From an uncultured Eubacteriales bacterium (GTDB lineage Bacteria; Acidobacteriota; Aminicenantia; Aminicenantales; Aminicenantaceae): a stretch of 64,000 nt of DNA. Of the stretch, positions 2,135-40,666 are shown in pieces; the stretch's first letter is position 1, and every line of letters starts with the position of its first letter. Made by a program: the position numbers and the translations under genes. The notes beneath the pieces were generated by a model. It had not been told where the DNA came from, searched no databases, and saw only the letters and a program-made list of their open reading frames with translations. The stretch is taken from NCBI GenBank assembly GCA_964645765.1, contig CAZYBE010000006.1, positions 18,175-82,174 on the forward strand, written 5' to 3'.

Positions 2135-2884
2135 TTAGATTTTAGCAAAATTCTCTTGAGCAAAATCCCAGTTTATTAGATGGTCGACAAAGGCAGCGAT
2201 GTAATCTTTGCGTCGATTCTGATAATCAAGGTAATAGGCATGTTCCCAGACATCTATTGTGAGCAAAGGAATCTGGGCCTTGGTCAGAGGATTATCGGCG
2301 TTAGCTGTCTTAGCGATTTTGAGCGAATCGCCTTCCACAACCAGCCAGACCCAGCCGCTGCCAAACAAAGTCGCTGCAGCTTCTATGAATTCCTTCTTGA
2401 AGTTATCGAAGCTGGTGAATGAGGCAGCTATTTTATCCGCCAATTTTTTTCCAGGAGAGCCGCCTCCGCCGGCTTTCATGCTTTTCCAGTAGAAGGTGTG
2501 ATTCCATGTCTGGGCGGCATTGTTAAAGACCGAGGCTTTGCTGCTATCACCTGCTGTCACTTTAATCATATCTTCGAGAGAGAGCTTTGCAAATTCTGTG
2601 TTCTGGACGAGCTTGTTGATGTTGTCTATGTAGGCTTGATGATGCTTGCCATAATGGAAGCCAATGGTCTTGGTTGAGATGTAAGGTTCAAGGCCGTTCT
2701 CGGCATAAGGCAGAGGAGGCAGCTTAAAAATAGATGGAATCTGCTCCTGGCTTAAATGAATGGCCGGAGATGCATTCAGACGGGATTTGAGAGCAAGAAA
2801 TTCGCCGGACAAAAAAGCCGAGCCACACAGAGCTCCTTTAAAAAATTGACGGCGGCTGAGGAGAGATATCCTTTCTTCTTTCAT
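2135..2884 (-). CDS. Fe/Mn-type superoxide dismutase with an N-terminal twin-arginine (Tat) signal peptide
   Basis: FHYGKHHQAY, WNHTFYW and DVWEHAYYLDYQNRR motifs of Fe/Mn SOD. N-terminus carries SRRQFFKGALCGSAFL, a Tat signal. Confidence 0.85.
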   Translation of the reverse strand: MKEERISLLSRRQFFKGALCGSAFLSGEFLALKSRLNASPAIHLSQEQIPSIFKLPPLPYAENGLEPYISTKTIGFHYGKHHQAYIDNINKLVQNTEFAKLSLEDMIKVTAGDSSKASVFNNAAQTWNHTFYWKSMKAGGGGSPGKKLADKIAASFTSFDNFKKEFIEAAATLFGSGWVWLVVEGDSLKIAKTANADNPLTKAQIPLLTIDVWEHAYYLDYQNRRKDYIAAFVDHLINWDFAQENFAKI

Positions 2885-3049
2885 TTTTTTTCTCCTTAGA
2901 TCAATTAAGTTTCTTTTTATTTTTCAGTTACCAAAGCTGAATTTTCACTCAAGGATTATGACGAAAAAAAGGGGGATATGCAACTTCTCTGTTCTTTTAT
3001 TGACTTTATTTTGAATCCACTGTAAAAACAGAGAACTAGAGGAAGGATC

Positions 3050-5155
3050 GTGCACATTTGGGGCCTTCACATCCTGGATATCGCCATCGTCTTTCTCTAT
3101 ATCTTAATCATCTTGTGGATGGGAAAACTCGCTGCGCAAAAAACAAGCGATTCGAGCGATTTTTATCTGGCCGGACGCAAATTGGGCAAATTCTACCAGT
3201 TCTTTCTCAACTTTGGCTGCTCAACCAACGCCGACCAGGCTGTGGCCGTTTCGCGTGAAATCTACCGCCAGGGAATCGGCGGCATGTGGATTCAATACCT
3301 TGTCCTCTTCTTGACTCCTTTCTACTGGTTCAGCACCTATTTCTTCCGCCGTGTGCGGCTGACAACCATTGGGGACTTCTTCACAGAGCGTTTTAGAAGC
3401 AAGTCTCTTGGGGCAAGTTTTGCTGTTTTTATCCTGCTGGTGTCTCTCCTTGGGGTGGGAATCAGCTATATGGTCGCAGCTAAGACAATGGTGGCCATGA
3501 CTCCTAAGCCTATCGAGAAATGCACACCTGAGGAACGCTTGAGCATCGAGCAATTCGAAGAGTACCAGGGACTCAAGTCAAGATTGGATCAAGGCTTGAG
3601 CCAGCAGGAAAAGACACGATACGAAGAGCTGAATGAAAAAAACAAGAAGGGCGAGCTTCATTCCTTCGTTTCCTACACCAACCCTCTCCTTTTCTACCTT
3701 ATCTTCTCGGTCATCGTCAGCATCTATACGATGATGGGAGGCTTTCGCGCTGCCGCCCTTACTGACACTGTCCAGGGGTTTCTGATCGTCATCTTTTCTG
3801 TTCTCCTCATCCCTTTGGGACTGAGCAAAATCGGCGGCTTTTCCGGACTCCATGCCTCTGTGGCTGACTATATGTTTGAATTATTCGGCTCGGTGACAAT
3901 CGGAGAATATGCCTGGTATACAATCGTGGCCATGGTTCTCTCCAACCTGGCCTCGATCATCGCAGTTGCTCCAGGCATGCAGACAGCCGGCTCGGCCAAG
4001 GACGAAATGACAGCCCGCTTTGGCATGATAACCGGGATGTTCTTCAAAAGATTCCTGATGATTTTCTGGGCTCTGGCAGGGCTGCTGGCCATAGGGCTCT
4101 ATGCCGGAAGGCTCCACGACCCGGATTTAATCTGGGGATTCATGACAAAAGACCTGCTCTTTCCTGGAGGGATTGGCTTGATGCTCGTCGGAATATTCGC
4201 AGCCAACATGTCCACACAGAGTGCAAGCGCTGTTTCCTATTCTGCGCTCTTTATAAAAAACCTTTATCAACCGCTCAAACCGAACAAGCCTGAAATGCAT
4301 TATTTGCTCATCGGCCGAATTGCGATAGCCGCCATGCTGTTGGCTGGAATAGGAATTGCGCTCTTCATCAACAATCTCCTGGTATTATTCCAGTACGCGA
4401 TCTCCATCCCGGCAATCTTCGGCGCCTCTATTTGGCTGGGGTTTGTCTGGCGGAGGCTGACAAAACCTGCTGTCTTCATCCAGGTTATCATCTGTTTAAT
4501 CATCTACGCTGTCATTCCCAATCTCTTTCAAACTCTCAGCTGGACAAAATATCATCAAGCCTTCTTACTGGAGACCAGAGCCAGAACAGTGACCATCACC
4601 ACCAAGGCCCTTACCGAGGACGTAAAGGAAGGAAGGGCAGAGCGCGTCGGCCAGCCTATTAAAAAACAGCACATTGTCGAGCCTGCGGGTGTCTTCTTCG
4701 AAAAGGTTGCGCGAACGAACCCCTCTGACCCTGCTTCGCCCAAGATAGGATTGGGAAGATTCCATGCTGAGATCTGGGTGTTGAGCTGGTTTAGAATCGA
4801 TTTCTCAAAATTCTCAAAGTCTCAGCTTGTTGCGACCCGCTTTCTATTCGATGCGGCTTTCCCCTTTCTTCTCCTCTTCATCTTATCTTTCGTGACTAAA
4901 TCCGTTCCCAAACCCTACCTGGATAGATTCTTTGCCAGGATGCACACCCCTGTTCAGAAAACAGAAGAAGAAGAGAGAAAGGCTCTTGAAGAATCTTATA
5001 GAAATCCGGGAAGGTTCGAAAAAGACAAGCTCTTCCCAGGCTCGAACTGGGAGATTCTCAAGCCGACAAGAATGGATTTCCTGGGATTTGGAGGAAGCTG
5101 GCTGCTGGTAGGTGTAATAATTTTATTGCTCTGGCTGATGGTTTCTATAAAATAA
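3050..5155 (+). CDS. Sodium:solute symporter (SSS) family transporter with an inserted charged loop and a C-terminal extension
   Basis: 701 aa multi-TM protein with SSS-family N-terminus (SDFYLAGRKLG). Probable GTG start at 3050 preceded by GGAAGGA. A ~120-aa hydrophilic insertion starts around residue 150. Confidence 0.65.
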   Translation: MHIWGLHILDIAIVFLYILIILWMGKLAAQKTSDSSDFYLAGRKLGKFYQFFLNFGCSTNADQAVAVSREIYRQGIGGMWIQYLVLFLTPFYWFSTYFFRRVRLTTIGDFFTERFRSKSLGASFAVFILLVSLLGVGISYMVAAKTMVAMTPKPIEKCTPEERLSIEQFEEYQGLKSRLDQGLSQQEKTRYEELNEKNKKGELHSFVSYTNPLLFYLIFSVIVSIYTMMGGFRAAALTDTVQGFLIVIFSVLLIPLGLSKIGGFSGLHASVADYMFELFGSVTIGEYAWYTIVAMVLSNLASIIAVAPGMQTAGSAKDEMTARFGMITGMFFKRFLMIFWALAGLLAIGLYAGRLHDPDLIWGFMTKDLLFPGGIGLMLVGIFAANMSTQSASAVSYSALFIKNLYQPLKPNKPEMHYLLIGRIAIAAMLLAGIGIALFINNLLVLFQYAISIPAIFGASIWLGFVWRRLTKPAVFIQVIICLIIYAVIPNLFQTLSWTKYHQAFLLETRARTVTITTKALTEDVKEGRAERVGQPIKKQHIVEPAGVFFEKVARTNPSDPASPKIGLGRFHAEIWVLSWFRIDFSKFSKSQLVATRFLFDAAFPFLLLFILSFVTKSVPKPYLDRFFARMHTPVQKTEEEERKALEESYRNPGRFEKDKLFPGSNWEILKPTRMDFLGFGGSWLLVGVIILLLWLMVSIK

Positions 5156-5273
5156 GTTGTAAGAAATGCAAGGCTCAGCATAAATTTATTGGAATTAAAT
5201 TTTAAATTAAGGTTTTATTTCATATCTTTGACCTTGTTGTTCATCTAATGAACCAAGGCAAAGGAGGCGGCTT

Positions 5274-6203
5274 ATGAGCAAAACAAGAAGTATTCTTGGC
5301 TGGATAGCCATCGGCTTTAGTGTTGTCATCTCTTCTTTTTGGGCCTATTGGGGGATAGGCGAAAGTTTTCATGAAGGCTGGCACATGGGTACCCTTTGGA
5401 ATAATATCGGCGGGGTGTTTGCTTATCTTATTCCGATGTTTTTAACAATTGCAATTTCGGTCTATGCCCTGATATCGCCTATAGGAGGAGGGCTGATCTA
5501 TTTCGCATTTGGAATTATCTTCAGTATTTTTGTTGTCGCCACCTGGAGCTCCCGTTGGACTAACGTTTGGGTTGCTCTTACCTGGTTTCCAGTGACAGTT
5601 TTGCTCATCATCATCGGCATATTCTACTGGGTTGGAAGGCCAAGGCCGAAGAAGTTTATATATGGGCCGGCAATAGGAATTCCTCTGCTCATCGTAATTG
5701 GTTTTGGCATAGAGCCAGTCATTCGGGTCGCTGGCCGTGTCGATGACGGAATTCGGGACGCACGTCTGGTTGAGGGAAATGGAGTGCGCTTGGTCTGGGC
5801 GCCTGCGGGGCCGGGCTGGCCGAAACACAGCGTTAACTGGGAAAAAGCAAAGCAAATCTGTCTTTATCTTTCTGAGGACGGCAAGACATTGATGAAGGCG
5901 CCGCAAAACATCTGGCGTCTTCCCACTGTGGAAGAAGCAGTCAGGTCGATGGCCAGGCATGGACGCAACTGCGGCGGAGAGTGGGACCCCAAGAAAGAGC
6001 GAGCAAGGTATAAAATCAAGCCTGACAAAGAATCGCCTCTCTGGGATACAACCTCCATGATTATCTATTGGTGGACTTCAACCGAGAAAGATGAGAACAC
6101 AGTCTACGCGATTGTCTATAACGGAGTAGTTTTTTCTGTGGCAAAAGATTTCCAGATAGGGAGCCGCTCCTTCCGGGCTGTTAAAGAAGCTCCTATCAAA
6201 TAA
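5274..6203 (+). CDS. Membrane protein (4-5 TM helices) with a C-terminal DUF1566 (Lcl-type) domain
   Basis: RBS AAGGAGG. Hydrophobic N-terminal half; C-terminus carries WRLPTVEEAV...YWWTSTEKDENTVYAIVYNGVVFSV...FRAVKE, which resembles DUF1566. Confidence 0.5.
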   Translation: MSKTRSILGWIAIGFSVVISSFWAYWGIGESFHEGWHMGTLWNNIGGVFAYLIPMFLTIAISVYALISPIGGGLIYFAFGIIFSIFVVATWSSRWTNVWVALTWFPVTVLLIIIGIFYWVGRPRPKKFIYGPAIGIPLLIVIGFGIEPVIRVAGRVDDGIRDARLVEGNGVRLVWAPAGPGWPKHSVNWEKAKQICLYLSEDGKTLMKAPQNIWRLPTVEEAVRSMARHGRNCGGEWDPKKERARYKIKPDKESPLWDTTSMIIYWWTSTEKDENTVYAIVYNGVVFSVAKDFQIGSRSFRAVKEAPIK

Positions 6204-16914: not shown

Positions 16915-18186
16915 TCACCTGCGCTTGGAAGTCACCTCGGCTTCGTAGCGTTTGATTTCCTCAATCCAGACATCGCCTGGAGGAACATCATTCTTTAAAC
17001 AGTAGAAATCCCAGACTGTACCAAAAGGCATGGTCTTTGCTTCCTCCATGAGCGCCAGGCGGGAAAAGAAATCGCCTCTGTCCTCAGATTCTTTGAGCCT
17101 CGGCCGAGGCTCAAGTAGAGCCAGCAGAAGCCCCTTTAAAACAGCTCGCGCTCCGATAACCCAGGCTCCAATACGATTGAGGCTGGCATCAAAAAAGTCA
17201 AGGGCAATATGGACACGTCCCAGCACACCGCCTCTGACAATCTCTTCGCAGACTGTCTTCAGCTCATCATTGAGGATGACAACATGGTCGCTGTCCCATC
17301 TGACACCTCGGCTGAAGTGAAGAAGCAGATCTGAAGAAAACTGTAGAATTGCTGAGATCTTATCTGCGACAGATTCTGTCGGATGAAAGTGCCCAAGGTC
17401 AAGGCAAAGCATGATGTTTTTTGAAATAACATAGCCCATGTAAAACTCGTGGGAGCCGACAACATAGGACTCGCTTCCGATGCCGAAGAGCTTGCTCTCC
17501 ACAGAATCCTTCATTTCTTTGGGGCTGTATTCCATCTCAAAAATCTTATCCAATGACTCTCTGAGAAGAGCCCGGTGCGTCCAGCGGTCGAACGGCGCAT
17601 CTTTTGAGCCGTCAGGTATCCAGAGGTTATGGATGCAGGGACTTTGCAGCTTCTGTCCCATAAAAGCACTTATGGCGCGGCAGCGGCGGACATGCTCAAT
17701 CCAGAATTCGCGAATTTTTTTGTCCCTGCTACTCAGAGTAAAACCCGAATCTGCTTTGGGATGGGAGAAACAGGTGGCGTTAAAGTCAAGCTTGAGGTTT
17801 TCAGACTTCGCCCATTCGACCCAGCCTTTAAAATGCTCAGGGCCAATCTGGTCTCTATCGACAGGCTTAGCTCCGAATTCACCGTAAATCGCATGGAGGT
17901 TCAGGCGGTGACGGCCTGGAATCAAGGAGTAGGCTTTGTTTAAATCCAGGCGCAGCTCGTCGATGGTCCTTGCTCTTCCCGGATAGTTGCCTGTGACCTG
18001 AAGTCCTCCGCCTTCAAGCCGGGCCCCTGGCTTTTCAAAACCCCTGACATCATCTCCCTGCCAGCAGTGGATTGAGAGAGAAATGCTTTCCAATGTTTTT
18101 ATGGCTTTATCCGCGTCTACTCCCAGCTTGGAGTAGAGCTCATTTGCCATTTTATATGCATCTTCAATTTCTTTTATGTTGTTCAA
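16915..18186 (-). CDS. rhaA: L-rhamnose isomerase
   Basis: 423 aa with HCWQGDDV and other RhaA-specific segments. Confidence 0.9.
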   Translation of the reverse strand: MNNIKEIEDAYKMANELYSKLGVDADKAIKTLESISLSIHCWQGDDVRGFEKPGARLEGGGLQVTGNYPGRARTIDELRLDLNKAYSLIPGRHRLNLHAIYGEFGAKPVDRDQIGPEHFKGWVEWAKSENLKLDFNATCFSHPKADSGFTLSSRDKKIREFWIEHVRRCRAISAFMGQKLQSPCIHNLWIPDGSKDAPFDRWTHRALLRESLDKIFEMEYSPKEMKDSVESKLFGIGSESYVVGSHEFYMGYVISKNIMLCLDLGHFHPTESVADKISAILQFSSDLLLHFSRGVRWDSDHVVILNDELKTVCEEIVRGGVLGRVHIALDFFDASLNRIGAWVIGARAVLKGLLLALLEPRPRLKESEDRGDFFSRLALMEEAKTMPFGTVWDFYCLKNDVPPGDVWIEEIKRYEAEVTSKRR

Positions 18187-22023: not shown

Positions 22024-22092
22024 GGAGTTATTCTGCAGAAGGATCCGCACGAAAAAATATTATCTTTATAACTTCTCTGATATAATAATTTC

Positions 22093-22320
22093 ATGAAAAT
22101 TTCTAAATCAGAAGCCAAAGCATTCAAGAACCGATGGGAAAGAGTGAACGCTGCCCAGCGCCATGAGCTGAGACAGACTTCTCTCTTAAAAAAGATTCTC
22201 CATCTTGCCGCTCTCATGGCATCGGTGAAAGCCATGCGGTGGGATAAAGCCCTCTCTAAAGAAGTGACTTCGGTGAGGAATCGCTGGAAACGTCTCAGGA
22301 AGGCTTATCATGCCGAATAA
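22093..22320 (+). CDS. Small hypothetical protein (75 aa), putative partner (antitoxin-like) of the downstream nucleotidyltransferase; homolog of 40451..40666
   Basis: Overlaps the downstream gene by 11 bp. Shares an ERxxxA...LLxxxLH segment and a basic C-terminal R[KR]x[YS]H motif with the ORF at 40451..40666. Confidence 0.3.
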   Translation: MKISKSEAKAFKNRWERVNAAQRHELRQTSLLKKILHLAALMASVKAMRWDKALSKEVTSVRNRWKRLRKAYHAE

Positions 22321-22897
22321 AATTTCCGTTCCTTTCTTATCAGCTCTGAAGGAACTTGCCTCGTGGCTGAGGTCTACCCATGTTCCGGGCATGGTCATAG
22401 GAGGCGTTGCAGCTTCTCTGCTGGGAAGACCAAGGATTACGCAGGATATCGATGTTATTGTCTGGATTGATTTTAATAAATGGAAAGATTTTCTTAAGGC
22501 CGGTAAAAATCATGGTTTTAGTCCGAGAATTAAAAATTCCCTTGAGTTCGCACGAAAAAATAGAGTTTTTCTCCTTCGCCATAGTCCCAGCAGAATTGAC
22601 ATTGACATTTCCCTCGGAGCCCTTCCATTCGAAGAGGAAGCCATCCGGAGAGCAGTGGCAAAGAGAATCAAAGGAATTCGGATTTATTTACCGACTCCAG
22701 AAGATTTGATCATCATGAAAGCCGTTGCCCATCGCCCACGGGACCTTGCTGATATTGAATCAATCTTGGATGCCCATCCAGACCTGGACTTGAAAAGAGT
22801 GCGGCGCTGGGTGAGGGAATTCGCTAGATCTCTTGAAATGCCAGAAATTCTTGATGATTTAGAGAAAATAACACACCATCCTAAGAAGAGATTGTAA
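22310..22897 (+). CDS. Pol-beta superfamily nucleotidyltransferase-fold protein (AbiEii-like toxin-type minimal NTase)
   Basis: hG[GS]x9-13DhDh signature IGGVAASLLGRPRITQDIDV, downstream acidic RIDIDISLG, and PEDLIIMK...RDLADIESIL. 195 aa. Paralog at 39898..40494. Confidence 0.5.
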   Translation: MPNKISVPFLSALKELASWLRSTHVPGMVIGGVAASLLGRPRITQDIDVIVWIDFNKWKDFLKAGKNHGFSPRIKNSLEFARKNRVFLLRHSPSRIDIDISLGALPFEEEAIRRAVAKRIKGIRIYLPTPEDLIIMKAVAHRPRDLADIESILDAHPDLDLKRVRRWVREFARSLEMPEILDDLEKITHHPKKRL

Positions 22898-23035
22898 TAA
22901 TTTCTAATGACATTTTAGAGGAAAGCTTTAAAAGATTACTTTTATACTTTGAAGCTCTATGTTCATATTTAATCCTAGAAAGAGCGCCAGCAAAAGATTG
23001 ACCTGAGCTTCCTTATCTCTTATAATTCCCTGCAA

Positions 23036-24328: not shown

Positions 24329-24339
24329 AAGCAAGCATC

Positions 24340-24530
24340 TCCAAAACCGTGATGCATAGCCTATAAAGGAGGTGAGGGTTGAGGGTGAGGAGGCCCCTAT
24401 AAGGCCTGAGCGGGCATGGTTTCTCTCCCAAGGAGAGAAGAGCGAAGGCCGAATGGGAGCTGATTTTCCTCGCTGGGGAAAATCAGCGTGCGACGAATCC
24501 TCAATCCTCACCTCCCTCACGGAAATTGAG
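24340..24530. repeat. Highly structured intergenic element A. It has a long imperfect terminal inverted repeat (aggaggtgagggttgagggtgagg ... cctcaatcctcacctccctcac) and internal hairpins, and contains the ctgagcgggcatggtttctct box shared with other loci.
   Basis: Inverted repeats read directly. Shared 21-mer also at 59118-59138 and, reverse-complemented with one mismatch, around 33590. Confidence 0.45.
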
Positions 24531-24607
24531 ATACTCAGTCCTTGATTTTTCCTGCATTATCATCAACTGCTGTCTCCATGTTATGTGGCTCAGAAAATGA
24601 CCAATCT

Positions 24608-24773
24608 GGAATGGCTTAAGCGACCATTGAAGGTTTAGCCTTCCCTTGCCGTGCTTCGAGGGGACCCAGCTCTGCTGGGCGGCGAGGATGTCTGAGCGAA
24701 GCGAGTTCCGCAGCCGCCGAGAAGCGCGGCAAGGGAACGGCGTTAAAAACCTGAATGGGAGCGAAGCCATTCC
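24608..24773 (+). ncRNA. Candidate structured non-coding RNA / structured repeat, copy 1 (strand uncertain)
   Basis: 166 nt between asnS and rimO. 10-bp terminal stem ggaatggctt/aagccattcc, internal hairpin cccagc-tct-gctggg, and a 48-nt core identical to copy 2 at 47864..48032. Stems covary between the copies. Confidence 0.45.
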
Positions 24774-24822
24774 GGATTGGCTTCCTTTAGCTGTTTACTA
24801 ATGAGCCGTAACAATTTACAAT

Positions 24823-38212: not shown

Positions 38213-38734
38213 TTGAAGAATTTATTGATCACTGGCCCTCCCCGCTGCGGAAAAACAACTTTGATCATGAGGCTGAGCCAGGACCCTTCTCTTTCTGATA
38301 AAATCGGAGGCTTCATCACCGAGGAATTCATGGAAAAAGGACAAAGGGTGGGCTTCAAGATCATCGCTCTTCCTGGCAAAGAAGAGGGCCTTCTCGCTCG
38401 CAAGAGCTATCCTTCGCCCCATCGTGTGGGAAAATATGGAGTGAACATCCAAGACCTTGAAAAAATCGGATGTTCTTCCCTGGAGGCTGCATTGCATTCA
38501 GGAAAATTTATCGTGGTCGATGAAATCGGCAAGATGGAACTTTTCTCAGAAAAATTCAGGACTGTTCTTTATCAGGCGCTTGAGGCTCCTCAAAAAATGT
38601 TAGCCACGATTATGGAAACAAAGAACCAATTCGCTGACAGGATTAAGAAGAGAAAAGATGTAAGAGTTATTCTTCTCAACCGAGACAATTTCGACCGAGT
38701 CTACCCTGAGGTTCGAGAATGGTTTAAAATGTGA
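38213..38734 (+). CDS. THEP1-type nucleoside-triphosphatase (P-loop NTPase)
   Basis: Walker A ITGPPRCGKTTL. About 173 aa, typical of the family. Confidence 0.65.
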   Translation: MKNLLITGPPRCGKTTLIMRLSQDPSLSDKIGGFITEEFMEKGQRVGFKIIALPGKEEGLLARKSYPSPHRVGKYGVNIQDLEKIGCSSLEAALHSGKFIVVDEIGKMELFSEKFRTVLYQALEAPQKMLATIMETKNQFADRIKKRKDVRVILLNRDNFDRVYPEVREWFKM

Positions 38735-39264
38735 TGAGAGGAGAAGAAATGAAGGCTCTTCTTGTGATTGACATGCTAAAAGACTTTCTCAATAAGGATG
38801 GCGCTCTGTATTGTGGCGATGAATCAAGGAAAATCATTCCCTTTGTCAAAGAAAAGATTGAAGAGTTCCATAAAGAGAGTGACCTGGTTGTTTTCATCTG
38901 CGATTCCCACGACCCCGATGACTTAGAATTCAAGATGTTTCCCAGGCATTGCGTTGCTGGCACAGAAGGAGCTGAGATCATCGACGAGCTTCCGGTTGGG
39001 AAAAAGGATGTTGTTGTCAAGAAGACCCGCTACAGCGCTTTCTACAAGACAAAGCTGGATAAAATTCTGAAGAAAAGGAAGGTCAGCGAAGTCTATATGG
39101 TCGGTGTCTGCACCTCAATCTGCGTCATGGACACTGTTGGAGACCTCCGAAACAGGGACTATCCAGTCTTTGTTTATAAAAACGGAGTGGCAGATTTCGA
39201 CCGGAAAGCCCATCAATTCTCCCTAGAGAGGATGGAGAAAACCTACGGTGCGAAAATAATCTAG
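38731..39264 (+). CDS. Isochorismatase-family cysteine hydrolase (nicotinamidase-like)
   Basis: ALLVIDMLKDF (catalytic Asp), K, and VGVCTSICV (Cys nucleophile). Confidence 0.7.
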   Translation: MMRGEEMKALLVIDMLKDFLNKDGALYCGDESRKIIPFVKEKIEEFHKESDLVVFICDSHDPDDLEFKMFPRHCVAGTEGAEIIDELPVGKKDVVVKKTRYSAFYKTKLDKILKKRKVSEVYMVGVCTSICVMDTVGDLRNRDYPVFVYKNGVADFDRKAHQFSLERMEKTYGAKII

Positions 39265-39351
39265 AAGGTCCTATCCAGAATGGCCTTGCTCCCATTCAGG
39301 TTTTTAACGCCGTTCTTTTTTTTGTGGATTTAAAATTTTTCCTGAAAGGAG

Positions 39352-39888
39352 TTGGACATGAAAGAGCAAACAATAAGGGGAAAAAAAATCAAGCTTATCG
39401 AGGGCAACATTGCTCTTCTCGACGTTGAGGCAGTGGTCAATGCTGCCAACAAAAATTTAATCCTTGGAGGGGGCGTTGCCGGAGCCATAAAGAGATATGG
39501 CGGCCCTTCCATCCAGGAGGAGTGCAATAAAATCGGGCCGATCAAGACAGGCGAAGCGGTCATAACGGGCGCAGGCGACCTCAAGGCTAAGTACGTCATC
39601 CACGCCGTTGGCCCTGTCGCCGGAGAAGGACAAGAAGAAGAAAAGTTACGCAGCGCAACTCTCGCGAGCCTTAAGATAGCCAAAGAAAGAACTATAAAAA
39701 ACATTGCTTTTCCTGCCATCAGCACCGGCATCTTTGGCTTCCCTATCGAGAAGTGCAGCGAGATCATGCTCAAGGCAGCAGCGGACTTTCTGGATAAAAA
39801 TGATTACCCCAAAGAAGTCATTTTTTGTCTTTTTGGAGAAGAAGCTTATTTTGTCTTCGAAAAGGCTCTGGAAAAATTGACCGGATAA
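39352..39888 (+). CDS. Macro domain protein (O-acetyl-ADP-ribose deacetylase / ADP-ribose binding)
   Basis: VVNAANKNLILGGGVAGAI and HAVGPV motifs. Confidence 0.8.
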   Translation: MDMKEQTIRGKKIKLIEGNIALLDVEAVVNAANKNLILGGGVAGAIKRYGGPSIQEECNKIGPIKTGEAVITGAGDLKAKYVIHAVGPVAGEGQEEEKLRSATLASLKIAKERTIKNIAFPAISTGIFGFPIEKCSEIMLKAAADFLDKNDYPKEVIFCLFGEEAYFVFEKALEKLTG

Positions 39889-39897
39889 AATTTCCTT

Positions 39898-40494
39898 TTA
39901 TCCCTCAGATATTCTTTTTTGAACAGCTTGCCAGATGTCTTCTAATCCTAATCTTTTTGCCCACAGAGAAATATAGTTATAATCTATCATTTCTTTTGAA
40001 ATTTTTAGAATTCCTGTGATATCGCGGAGATGTTTTTCTGAACCGCCTTCTCTATAATATTCCATTTTTTTAATAATCACATCTTCGGGAGAAGCAAAAT
40101 TGGCTTCCGCATCTTCCAGCGCTTTGATTCTTTTTATTCGGTTAAATTGACTCTTGTCAAAATCGTCCATTTTGCTGATGATGACATCTATTTTTAGTCC
40201 TGAAGCAGGGTGAATAATATTGAATGAATGTTTGAGGAGAATGGCTTTCTTTATCATATCTTCATCCAGATAAAAATCTTCCTTAGGAAAATATTTTATT
40301 AACGCCTTGATATGTTCCTCCTTGATATCTGCTACAATATCAATGTCAATTGTTAGCCTTGGCTCGCCATAGGCGATACTGGCAATAGCGCCGGTAATCA
40401 GATAGGGAAATTTTAAACTCTCAAAACAGCGGATGACCAGGCGGAGGAGCTCAGACTGTTCCATGAGACATTCTCCTTGCAGTTTCTCTTTCAA
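39898..40494 (-). CDS. Pol-beta superfamily nucleotidyltransferase-fold protein (paralog of 22310..22897)
   Basis: ITGAIASIAYGEPRLTIDIDIV, LKIDVIISK and PEDVIIKK...HLRDITGIL. Collinear with the first copy. Confidence 0.5.
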   Translation of the reverse strand: MKEKLQGECLMEQSELLRLVIRCFESLKFPYLITGAIASIAYGEPRLTIDIDIVADIKEEHIKALIKYFPKEDFYLDEDMIKKAILLKHSFNIIHPASGLKIDVIISKMDDFDKSQFNRIKRIKALEDAEANFASPEDVIIKKMEYYREGGSEKHLRDITGILKISKEMIDYNYISLWAKRLGLEDIWQAVQKRISEG

Positions 40495-40666
40495 TTTTTT
40501 TTTCTGACCAATCAGGATGCAAAGAGTGAAGGCTATTCGAGAGCAAAATTATTGTCGAGCGCCACAGGCCAAAGGCGATGCGCAGGCGCTCAAGAGGGGT
40601 CTTGTTTTTATAGATTACGACCATAACATCATCGACCGCTTCGACATGAAAAAACTTATTCTCCAT
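40451..40666 (-). CDS. Small hypothetical protein (71 aa), putative partner of NTase 39898..40494
   Basis: Overlaps the NTase start by 44 bp. Shares segments with the ORF at 22093..22320. Confidence 0.25.
   Translation of the reverse strand: MENKFFHVEAVDDVMVVIYKNKTPLERLRIAFGLWRSTIILLSNSLHSLHPDWSEKKIERETARRMSHGTV

Follow-up and report, generated by a model that had tools for sequence, protein, structure and literature searches.

A 64,000-nucleotide (nt) stretch of contig CAZYBE010000006.1 from an uncultured Aminicenantaceae bacterium (positions 18,175 to 82,174; hereafter the window) carries two pairs of overlapping genes, each made up of a small open reading frame (ORF) followed by a gene for a nucleotidyltransferase (NTase). 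The pairs are located at 22093–22897 on the plus strand (pair 1) and 39898–40666 on the minus strand (pair 2), exactly where a preliminary description of the sequence had placed them. We consider it probable that they are two independent, distantly related toxin–antitoxin (TA) cassettes of the MenAT1 type, and that in pair 1 the partner of the enzyme belongs to a different, un-named and widespread protein family. Based on sequence comparison, the precise known relative is the MenA1/MenT1 pair (Rv0078B/Rv0078A) of Mycobacterium tuberculosis.

Gene layout and the relationship of the enzymes to MenT1

For both enzymes searched singly, the top sequence match in the PDB was MenT1 (Rv0078A; 8AN4, 8AN5 and 8RR5), and the remote-homology search that had been proposed as a check gave the same result, with 8AN4 being the best solved structure matched by the family profile of the pair 1 enzyme (E 4.3e-10) and by that of the pair 2 enzyme (E 4.1e-9). 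The pair 1 NTase scored over the cut-offs of three Pfam models, DUF6036 (37.5 bits), AbiEii (PF08843; 36.6 bits, cut-off 22.5) and DUF2204 (32.3 bits). Its AlphaFold2 (AF2) model had a predicted local distance difference test score (pLDDT) of 89.1 and a predicted template modelling score (pTM) of 0.84, and a Foldseek search with this model returned MenT1 (8an5_B and 8an4) as the top matches at E 3.6e-11 to 7e-10, with template modelling (TM) scores of 0.73–0.77 over the full length. The runners-up were the fungal NTase-like protein 5uvd (1.6e-6), MenT3/TglT (about 2e-5) and ANT(2'') (about 3e-5), such that MenT1 led the next matches by about five orders of magnitude. The model thus predicts for the pair 1 enzyme the bi-lobed NTase fold of MenT1, and the profile match points to the MenT1 fold for the pair 2 enzyme. 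The two enzymes are 26% identical (E 5e-10), and a hidden Markov model (HMM) of the pair 1 enzyme family found the pair 2 enzyme at 40 bits, with E values of roughly 1e-11 to 1e-14 in the different search sets. Judged by these matches, both are MenT1-like nucleotidyltransferases of the DUF1814/AbiEii superfamily, which supports the original suggestion of TA-like gene pairs with such an NTase at their core.

Residue conservation was counted over 81 enzyme sequences of the pair 1 family and 39 of the pair 2 family. Residues T39, D41, D43, K137 and D152 of MenT1 correspond to T44, D46, D48, K137 and D148 in pair 1, where they are kept in 80–81 of the 81 sequences, and to T38, D40, D42, K133 and D148 in pair 2, where they are kept in 37–39 of the 39. 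As the third Pol-beta Asp, pair 1 has D99 and pair 2 has D93. In MenT1, the conserved catalytic residues are T39, D41, K137 and D152, and toxicity is lost in the D41A, K137A and D152A mutants (PMC10435456); the T39A mutant is still toxic (PMC10435456), and D43 aids metal binding, as derived from structural superposition (PMC10435456). The minimal NTase signature that had been read in both proteins, hGGx12DID, stands in so far as each has an hG[GA] motif and a DxD motif; the spacer is x13, and pair 2 has G-A and not G-G. The "second acidic DxD strand" reported with it is actually a single conserved Asp, with D97 of pair 1 not being invariant and pair 2 reading K-I-D. The features of the two pairs are as follows:

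22093–22320, plus strand: pair 1 small gene, 75 amino acids (aa), isoelectric point (pI) 11.3; putative antitoxin, from the ORF, the family HMM and the linkage to the NTase
22310–22897, plus strand: pair 1 NTase gene, 195 aa, pI 10.1; putative tRNA nucleotidyltransferase toxin, MenT1-like by Pfam, profile and AF2/Foldseek; catalytic set G31 G32, T44, D46, D48, D99, K137, D145 and D148
40451–40666, minus strand: pair 2 small gene, 71 aa; assigned to the MenA1-type antitoxins by its match to Pfam PF18993
39898–40464, minus strand: pair 2 NTase gene, 188 aa from ATG 40464; putative toxin, MenT1-like by profile and residues; catalytic set G25, T38, D40, D42, D93, K133 and D148
22076–22112: imperfect 16-nt inverted repeat, TCTGATATAATAATTT / AAATTTCTAAATCAGA, 81% complementary, from a repeat search

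In pair 1, the small ORF runs into the NTase ORF with an 11-nt overlap, and the NTase ATG is preceded at 6 nt by a Shine-Dalgarno-like AGGAAGG. The mechanical ORF list begins the pair 2 NTase at TTG 40494. Its most likely start is ATG 40464, because AAGGAG is present 8 nt upstream and the homologues begin with MEQ.ELL; this start gives a protein of 188 aa and a 14-nt overlap with the small gene. As such, the enzyme sizes first given (195–198 aa) are retained at 195 aa for pair 1 and revised from 198 to 188 aa for pair 2. HMMs of both enzyme families and both small-protein families matched only these two loci in the whole window. The module had been described as present twice, which is correct for the architecture; the enzymes are distant paralogues and their partners are from two different families.

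A TATAAT-like box and the start codon (ATG) of the pair 1 small gene both fall within the inverted repeat, which may, at low confidence, be a candidate operator or mark a leaderless start. Scans for promoters and terminators gave counts not above those in shuffled sequence and no site fitting either operon start, and neither tRNA genes nor Rfam families were found across the whole window. There is also a contrast in pI between the enzymes: the pair 2 NTase is acidic (5.9), and the family medians are 9.3 for pair 1 versus 5.3 for pair 2.

The two partner proteins

In the preliminary description, each NTase was preceded by an overlapping ORF of 71–75 aa, and both of these ORFs proved to be conserved genes. 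For pair 1, 80 loci with relatives of the enzyme (49–71% identity) were taken from species-representative genomes, all of which are metagenome-assembled genomes (MAGs). The phyla in their record titles include Ca. Aminicenantes, Nitrospirota, Methylomirabilota, Planctomycetota, Acidobacteriota, Chloroflexi, Elusimicrobia, KSB1, Delta- and Gammaproteobacteria, among others; a single record carries the label Woesearchaeota. A small ORF of the same family was located directly upstream, on the same strand, in all 79 testable loci (the 80th ends at a contig edge), mostly overlapping the enzyme gene by 8 nt, and the family had no further matches elsewhere within those 80 loci. For pair 2, an ORF of the PF18993 family was directly upstream of the enzyme gene in 7/7 related loci, so that conservation of the gene pair, which had been named as a check, held for both.

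An HMM of the pair 1 small family from which the window sequence and its closest relative had been excluded gave the window ORF a score of 95.3 bits (E 1e-28) and matched no other of the 1197 window frames. The consensus of the family is K.EA.AFK.RW..VN..E..ELR.TP...KL.QL.ALM.S....GW...L...E.EVR.RW.RLR, in which W65 is the sole invariant residue and His is nowhere conserved. Ten of the 79 partners have an N-terminal fusion to an HTH_3/XRE helix-turn-helix (HTH) domain (E 9e-9 to 4e-14). Antitoxins classically consist of a domain that binds DNA coupled to one that binds the toxin. Word-indexed protein searches returned 2869 homologues for the toxin clade of pair 1, which is also present at more than 517 loci in species-representative genomes, and just two homologues, near-identical, for the small protein.

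None of 39 members of the pair 1 small family matched a Pfam or NCBIfam model, and the window protein had no PADLOC match and, by profile search, no match in the PDB. Publicly, these partners are named "hypothetical protein" or, in the case of the fusions, "XRE family transcriptional regulator". An AF2 model of the pair 1 small protein has helices at residues 5–28, 31–46 and 52–74 (pLDDT 77, pTM 0.49), and a Foldseek search with it found no significant fold match (best E 2.3). A broader literature search on MenT did not turn up a description of the family, and no relevant paper was found in the literature on DUF6036, DUF2204, PF19502 and PF09970. The pair 1 partner is a real, widespread and apparently undescribed conserved family.

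The pair 2 small protein passes the Pfam model PF18993, "Rv0078B-related antitoxin", at 30.7 bits versus a cut-off of 27.1, and PF18993 is on record for 19 of 20 of its homologues. The profile of its family matched the MenA1 chain 8an5_C weakly (E 0.36), and the ERLRIAFG helix of the family aligns to helix alpha-1 of MenA1, which spans both MenT1 protomers (PMC10435456). In some relatives of the pair 2 enzyme (P0160, P0261 and P0247; ~290 aa), an N-terminal PF18993 domain is fused to the NTase within one polypeptide. By sequence, pair 2 is an ordinary member of the MenA1/MenT1 family and hence of a kind that is already described. The earlier statements that the small partner matches no family and that the module is an undescribed TA variant are therefore kept for pair 1, with respect to Pfam, NCBIfam, PADLOC and the PDB and to the apparently undescribed partner family, and withdrawn for pair 2.

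The two small proteins had been thought to share an ERxxxA...LLxxxLH segment and an R[KR]x[YS]H motif, which our comparisons do not support. BLASTP between them gave E = 15. The register in which the motifs had been seen has nine identities over 32 residues, a number that was reached by 26 of 500 shuffles (p about 0.05), and the residues that match pair 2 in this register are at variable positions within the pair 1 small family. When the pair 1 small family was compared with the PF18993 alignment by hhalign, the probability was 1.4%, 8 of 200 column shuffles scored equally, and another register was picked ("ELR.TP...KL.QLAALM.S" versus "R.KT..ERLRIAFGMW.S"). The overall result is marginal, and direct homology of the two proteins was rejected as evidence; the central amphipathic helices may go back to a very distant common ancestor.

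Membership of the pair 1 partner in PF18993 was also assessed, and 0/39 family members matched the model, nor did the PF18993 HMM match upstream of the pair 1-type enzymes in the 79 testable loci. Pair 1 is therefore MenT1-like by its toxin, yet not a strict member of the MenA1/MenT1 family. A residue of the toxin would fit a different docking partner. MenT1 E35 forms a salt bridge to MenA1 (PMC10435456), and the equivalent position is E in 32/39 sequences of the pair 2 clade and R in 75/81 of the pair 1 clade (R40 in pair 1), which suggests that the pair 1 partner docks differently.

Genomic setting and related loci

Both copies in the window lie amid housekeeping genes and not in a defence island. 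Pair 1 is flanked by a gene for a beta-propeller protein on one side and asparaginyl-tRNA synthetase (AsnRS) on the other, and pair 2 by a gene for a macro-domain protein and a zinc ATP-binding cassette (ABC) transporter. The pair 1 site was compared across 80 metagenomic loci with an AsnRS that is 77–94% identical to that of the window, and in only one of them was a pair 1 enzyme present upstream of AsnRS. In a close relative (L096), the same site has 37 bp with a hairpin in place of the 974-bp interval, between flanks that are 88–90% identical DNA. In another (L094), with flanks of the same 88–90% identity, the site is empty except for a 55-bp relic of the small gene (1408–1462, corresponding to window 22210–22264 at 91%). 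Since one of these sites is empty, the other holds a relic and the flanks are kept, close relatives must differ by a gain or loss of the pair 1 cassette, in keeping with an accessory TA module.

At a further locus (L095:250–290, compared with window 22886–23005), ~100 bp from the NTase stop to the AsnRS promoter was deleted between short AGATTG repeats, a deletion that joins the NTase 3' end to a TTGACC -35 box. In viral contigs, the pair 1 family had one distant match and pair 2 had none; on sequenced plasmids, matches were rare, with one weak match to pair 1 and six to pair 2 (32–36% identity, annotated as hypothetical).

Several loci with relatives of the two pairs have neighbours of their own. 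In an uncultured Brocadiaceae MAG (CAZPUD010000096.1; L011:2649–5752), a pair 1-type module at 2649–3588 is followed by a P-loop kinase-like ORF and then by an orphan PF18993 (MenA1-type) gene at 4395–4622; after this gene is a 328-aa ORF (4766–5752) that, read by eye, resembles Cas1. Other orphan PF18993 genes were found at L089:3001–3267 and L092:3001–3213, where the next gene is an unrelated one, 3-keto-disaccharide hydrolase-like at one locus and a methyltransferase at the other. Immediately beside a pair 2-type module (L093:3001–4433), the opposite strand carries a MazE/PemK (MazEF-type) pair, the two making up a small TA cluster. The pair 2-enzyme relative Haur_5016 of Herpetosiphon aurantiacus pHAU01 (L175:1237–2085, 282 aa) has an N-terminal extension of ~88 aa, for which a Pfam search gave no match, and an XRE-family gene sits separately upstream of it. 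On Planktothrix agardhii plasmid p1 (L176:398–2058), a pair 2-enzyme relative lies directly 3' of an IS701-family transposase, and the family search detected no antitoxin-family ORF; the partner may have been displaced by insertion of the transposase.

In the window itself, genes for an NTPase_1 (THEP1-like) protein, an isochorismatase-family protein and the macro-domain protein are located beside pair 2 on the opposite strand (38213–39888), and this trio may be a cluster for nucleotide or ADP-ribose metabolism. After AsnRS is a gap of ~490 bp with short ORFs only (24329–24822), and the next long gene, from 24823, is one that we take, on reading by eye, to be a radical S-adenosylmethionine (SAM)-like ORF.

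Known systems, proposed mechanism and alternative explanations

MenT1 adds cytidine monophosphate (CMP) to tRNA 3'-CCA ends, which blocks aminoacylation (PMC10435456). With MenA1 it forms a T:A:T heterotrimer in which MenA1 lies across two MenT1 monomers (PMC10435456), and MenA1 induces auto-phosphorylation of MenT1 at T39 (PMC11375011). Both window pairs resemble this system in having a ~70-aa (putative) antitoxin gene directly upstream of, and overlapping, a ~190-aa NTase gene, in the T/D.D/K/D active site and in the predicted toxin fold (TM about 0.75 for the pair 1 model); in addition, the pair 2 antitoxin falls in PF18993, and MenT1 L8 and L123, which belong to the pocket for the MenA1 helix, are hydrophobic in pair 1 too (L13 and I123). 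The window enzymes differ in being only about 20% identical to MenT1. The pair 1 partner differs in lying outside PF18993 and in having three predicted helices, whereas MenA1 is a two-helix V, and some pair 1-type partners have an HTH that MenA1 lacks. MenAT1 does not autoregulate (PMC11375011).

The modules had at first been likened to AbiEi/AbiEii and to MNT/HEPN pairs. Neither likeness extends to the partners, which are helical proteins of 71–75 aa that are neither a COG5340 AbiEi nor a HEPN protein and are without a conserved Rx4–6H. AbiE and MenA3/MenT3 (TakA/TglT) have NTases of the same DUF1814/AbiEii superfamily, and the pair 1 enzyme passes PF08843; however, the toxins there are about 290 aa, versus 188–195 aa here, and the antitoxins are COG5340 winged-helix proteins in contrast to the small partners of the window. 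AbiEi, a COG5340 protein, combines a winged HTH at the N-terminus with an antitoxicity domain at the C-terminus, and no AbiEi family was among the Pfam, NCBIfam and PADLOC matches of both partners. MenA3 is a protein of 22.5 kDa (PMC11375011). What the window pairs have in common with MNT/HEPN (type VII) modules is two genes, one of them for a minimal Pol-beta-type NTase, but the window partners are too small for HEPN and have no conserved Arg...His, a Pfam search of them gave no HEPN match, and the NTase has C-terminal motifs specific to DUF1814. In MNT/HEPN modules, moreover, it is the HEPN protein, with its Rx4–6H motif, that acts as the toxin, and the NTase serves as the antitoxin.

For both pairs we infer toxicity, a tRNA target, the nucleotide that is added, the mode of neutralization and any physiological or anti-phage role. 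In the mechanism that we propose, the small helical protein would be translated first from a gene that overlaps the start of the NTase gene. By analogy with MenT1, the NTase would extend tRNA 3' ends, and the same chemistry is expected because both enzymes keep the full catalytic set and the phosphoacceptor Thr. The partner would neutralize the enzyme, bound to it through an amphipathic helix, and may also shift the conserved Thr, T44 of pair 1 or T38 of pair 2, closer to the bound nucleoside triphosphate, which would lead to self-phosphorylation and inactivation of the toxin.

Several observations weigh against reading both pairs as MenAT1-type cassettes. With regard to the enzymes, the pair 2 NTase scores only 18.1 bits on Pfam AbiEii, for which the cut-off is 22.5, and it has G-A at the glycine motif where its own family usually has G-S. 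From published work, MenT2 is a non-toxic member of the family (PMC7450476), and in E. coli even MenT1 has no toxic effect (PMC10435456). Orphan PF18993 genes without an NTase also exist, in agreement with the published count in which 15 of 21 menA1 genes adjoin a menT-like gene. With regard to the pair 1 partner, it has no significant sequence or fold likeness to MenA1 or any known antitoxin, its model was built from a two-sequence alignment and is of moderate confidence, and context is what makes it a putative antitoxin. Both pair 1 proteins are also strongly basic (pI 11.3 and 10.1), which is unusual for a sequestering antitoxin, and the partner may additionally, or instead, bind nucleic acid. 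We give about an even chance to the more specific proposal that the pair 1 partner represents a new class of antitoxins that act on MenT1-like toxins, are widespread, mainly in uncultured lineages, and share no origin with MenA1 or with the COG5340 antitoxins that MenT3 and MenT4 have. Such a class would be recognized by three predicted helices, two of them basic and RW-containing around a hydrophobic one, and by an optional XRE-HTH.

Some of the same properties could belong to a nucleic-acid-binding accessory protein or regulator, for instance a transcription factor of the operon or a cofactor that recruits RNA or tRNA; the NTase would then modify RNA or nucleotides without being toxic. With a net charge of +14 and a pI of 11.3 (family median 9.9), the small protein of pair 1 is extremely basic, as is its enzyme, it is unlike any known antitoxin, the HTH fusions tie its family to DNA binding, and an inverted repeat extends across its start codon; moreover, MenT2 shows that some MenT proteins are non-toxic (PMC7450476). 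We nevertheless judge this explanation to be unlikely given the strict linkage of the two genes, with translational coupling, in 79/79 loci, the patchy spread across phyla and the loss or decay between close relatives. The pair 1 enzyme also retains all of the residues that MenT1 toxicity needs, including the regulatory Thr, and in the HTH fusions the small domain is at the site that the toxin-binding domain takes in type II antitoxins.

A different question is that of biological role, where an answer other than chromosomal stress or addiction would be that the modules primarily serve abortive infection or phage defence and are triggered by infection. The toxin superfamily includes AbiEii of the AbiE phage defence system (PMC7450476), the authors of the MenT1 study speculate that MenT toxins of low specificity might target phage tRNAs (PMC10435456), and the Brocadiaceae locus described above (L011) has a cas1-like gene beside the module. 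However, there were no PADLOC matches, both copies are among housekeeping genes (AsnRS, beta-propeller, macro-domain and zinc ABC transporter genes) and viral contigs are virtually free of the family, and we rate a primary role in defence as slightly less likely than the accessory-protein explanation; it would in any case be compatible with the molecular mechanism proposed here. It is very improbable, lastly, that the NTases are small-molecule enzymes of the antibiotic type akin to ANT(2'')-Ia or LnuA, with incidental ORFs upstream. The Foldseek search did return both of those enzymes (E 3e-5 to 1e-4, TM 0.5–0.6), but the match to MenT1 spans the full length and is better by about five to six orders of magnitude. 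The DUF1814-specific K...R..D..D motifs at the C-terminus do not vary, the ORFs upstream come from conserved protein families with strict linkage to the NTase, and no NCBIfam resistance model was matched. A grouping with aminoglycoside NTases lacking partner genes had been put forward as an outcome that would speak against a TA module; ANT(2'') is far behind MenT1, and the partner gene was always present in the 79 loci.

As MenAT1-type cassettes, the two pairs have different implications. Pair 2 simply carries the MenA1/MenT1 family into an environmental lineage, the closest genome match being a Candidatus Aminicenantes MAG. With respect to pair 1, MenT toxins are recently characterized translation inhibitors that block tRNA charging, and their published antitoxins, which are already of unrelated families, may share the induction of toxin auto-phosphorylation. 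If the reading of pair 1 is true, it would provide a third independent test of antitoxin-induced auto-phosphorylation of the Thr as a general form of MenT control. One more antitoxin family would be useful and unsurprising, since MenT toxins are already known with unrelated antitoxins. The whole of this MenT-like branch is now annotated only as "hypothetical protein" plus "nucleotidyltransferase", and naming the pair 1 partner would better the annotation of TA systems in many uncultured phyla. A single genome with both types of partner would also be a natural setting in which to study the insulation between cognate pairs.

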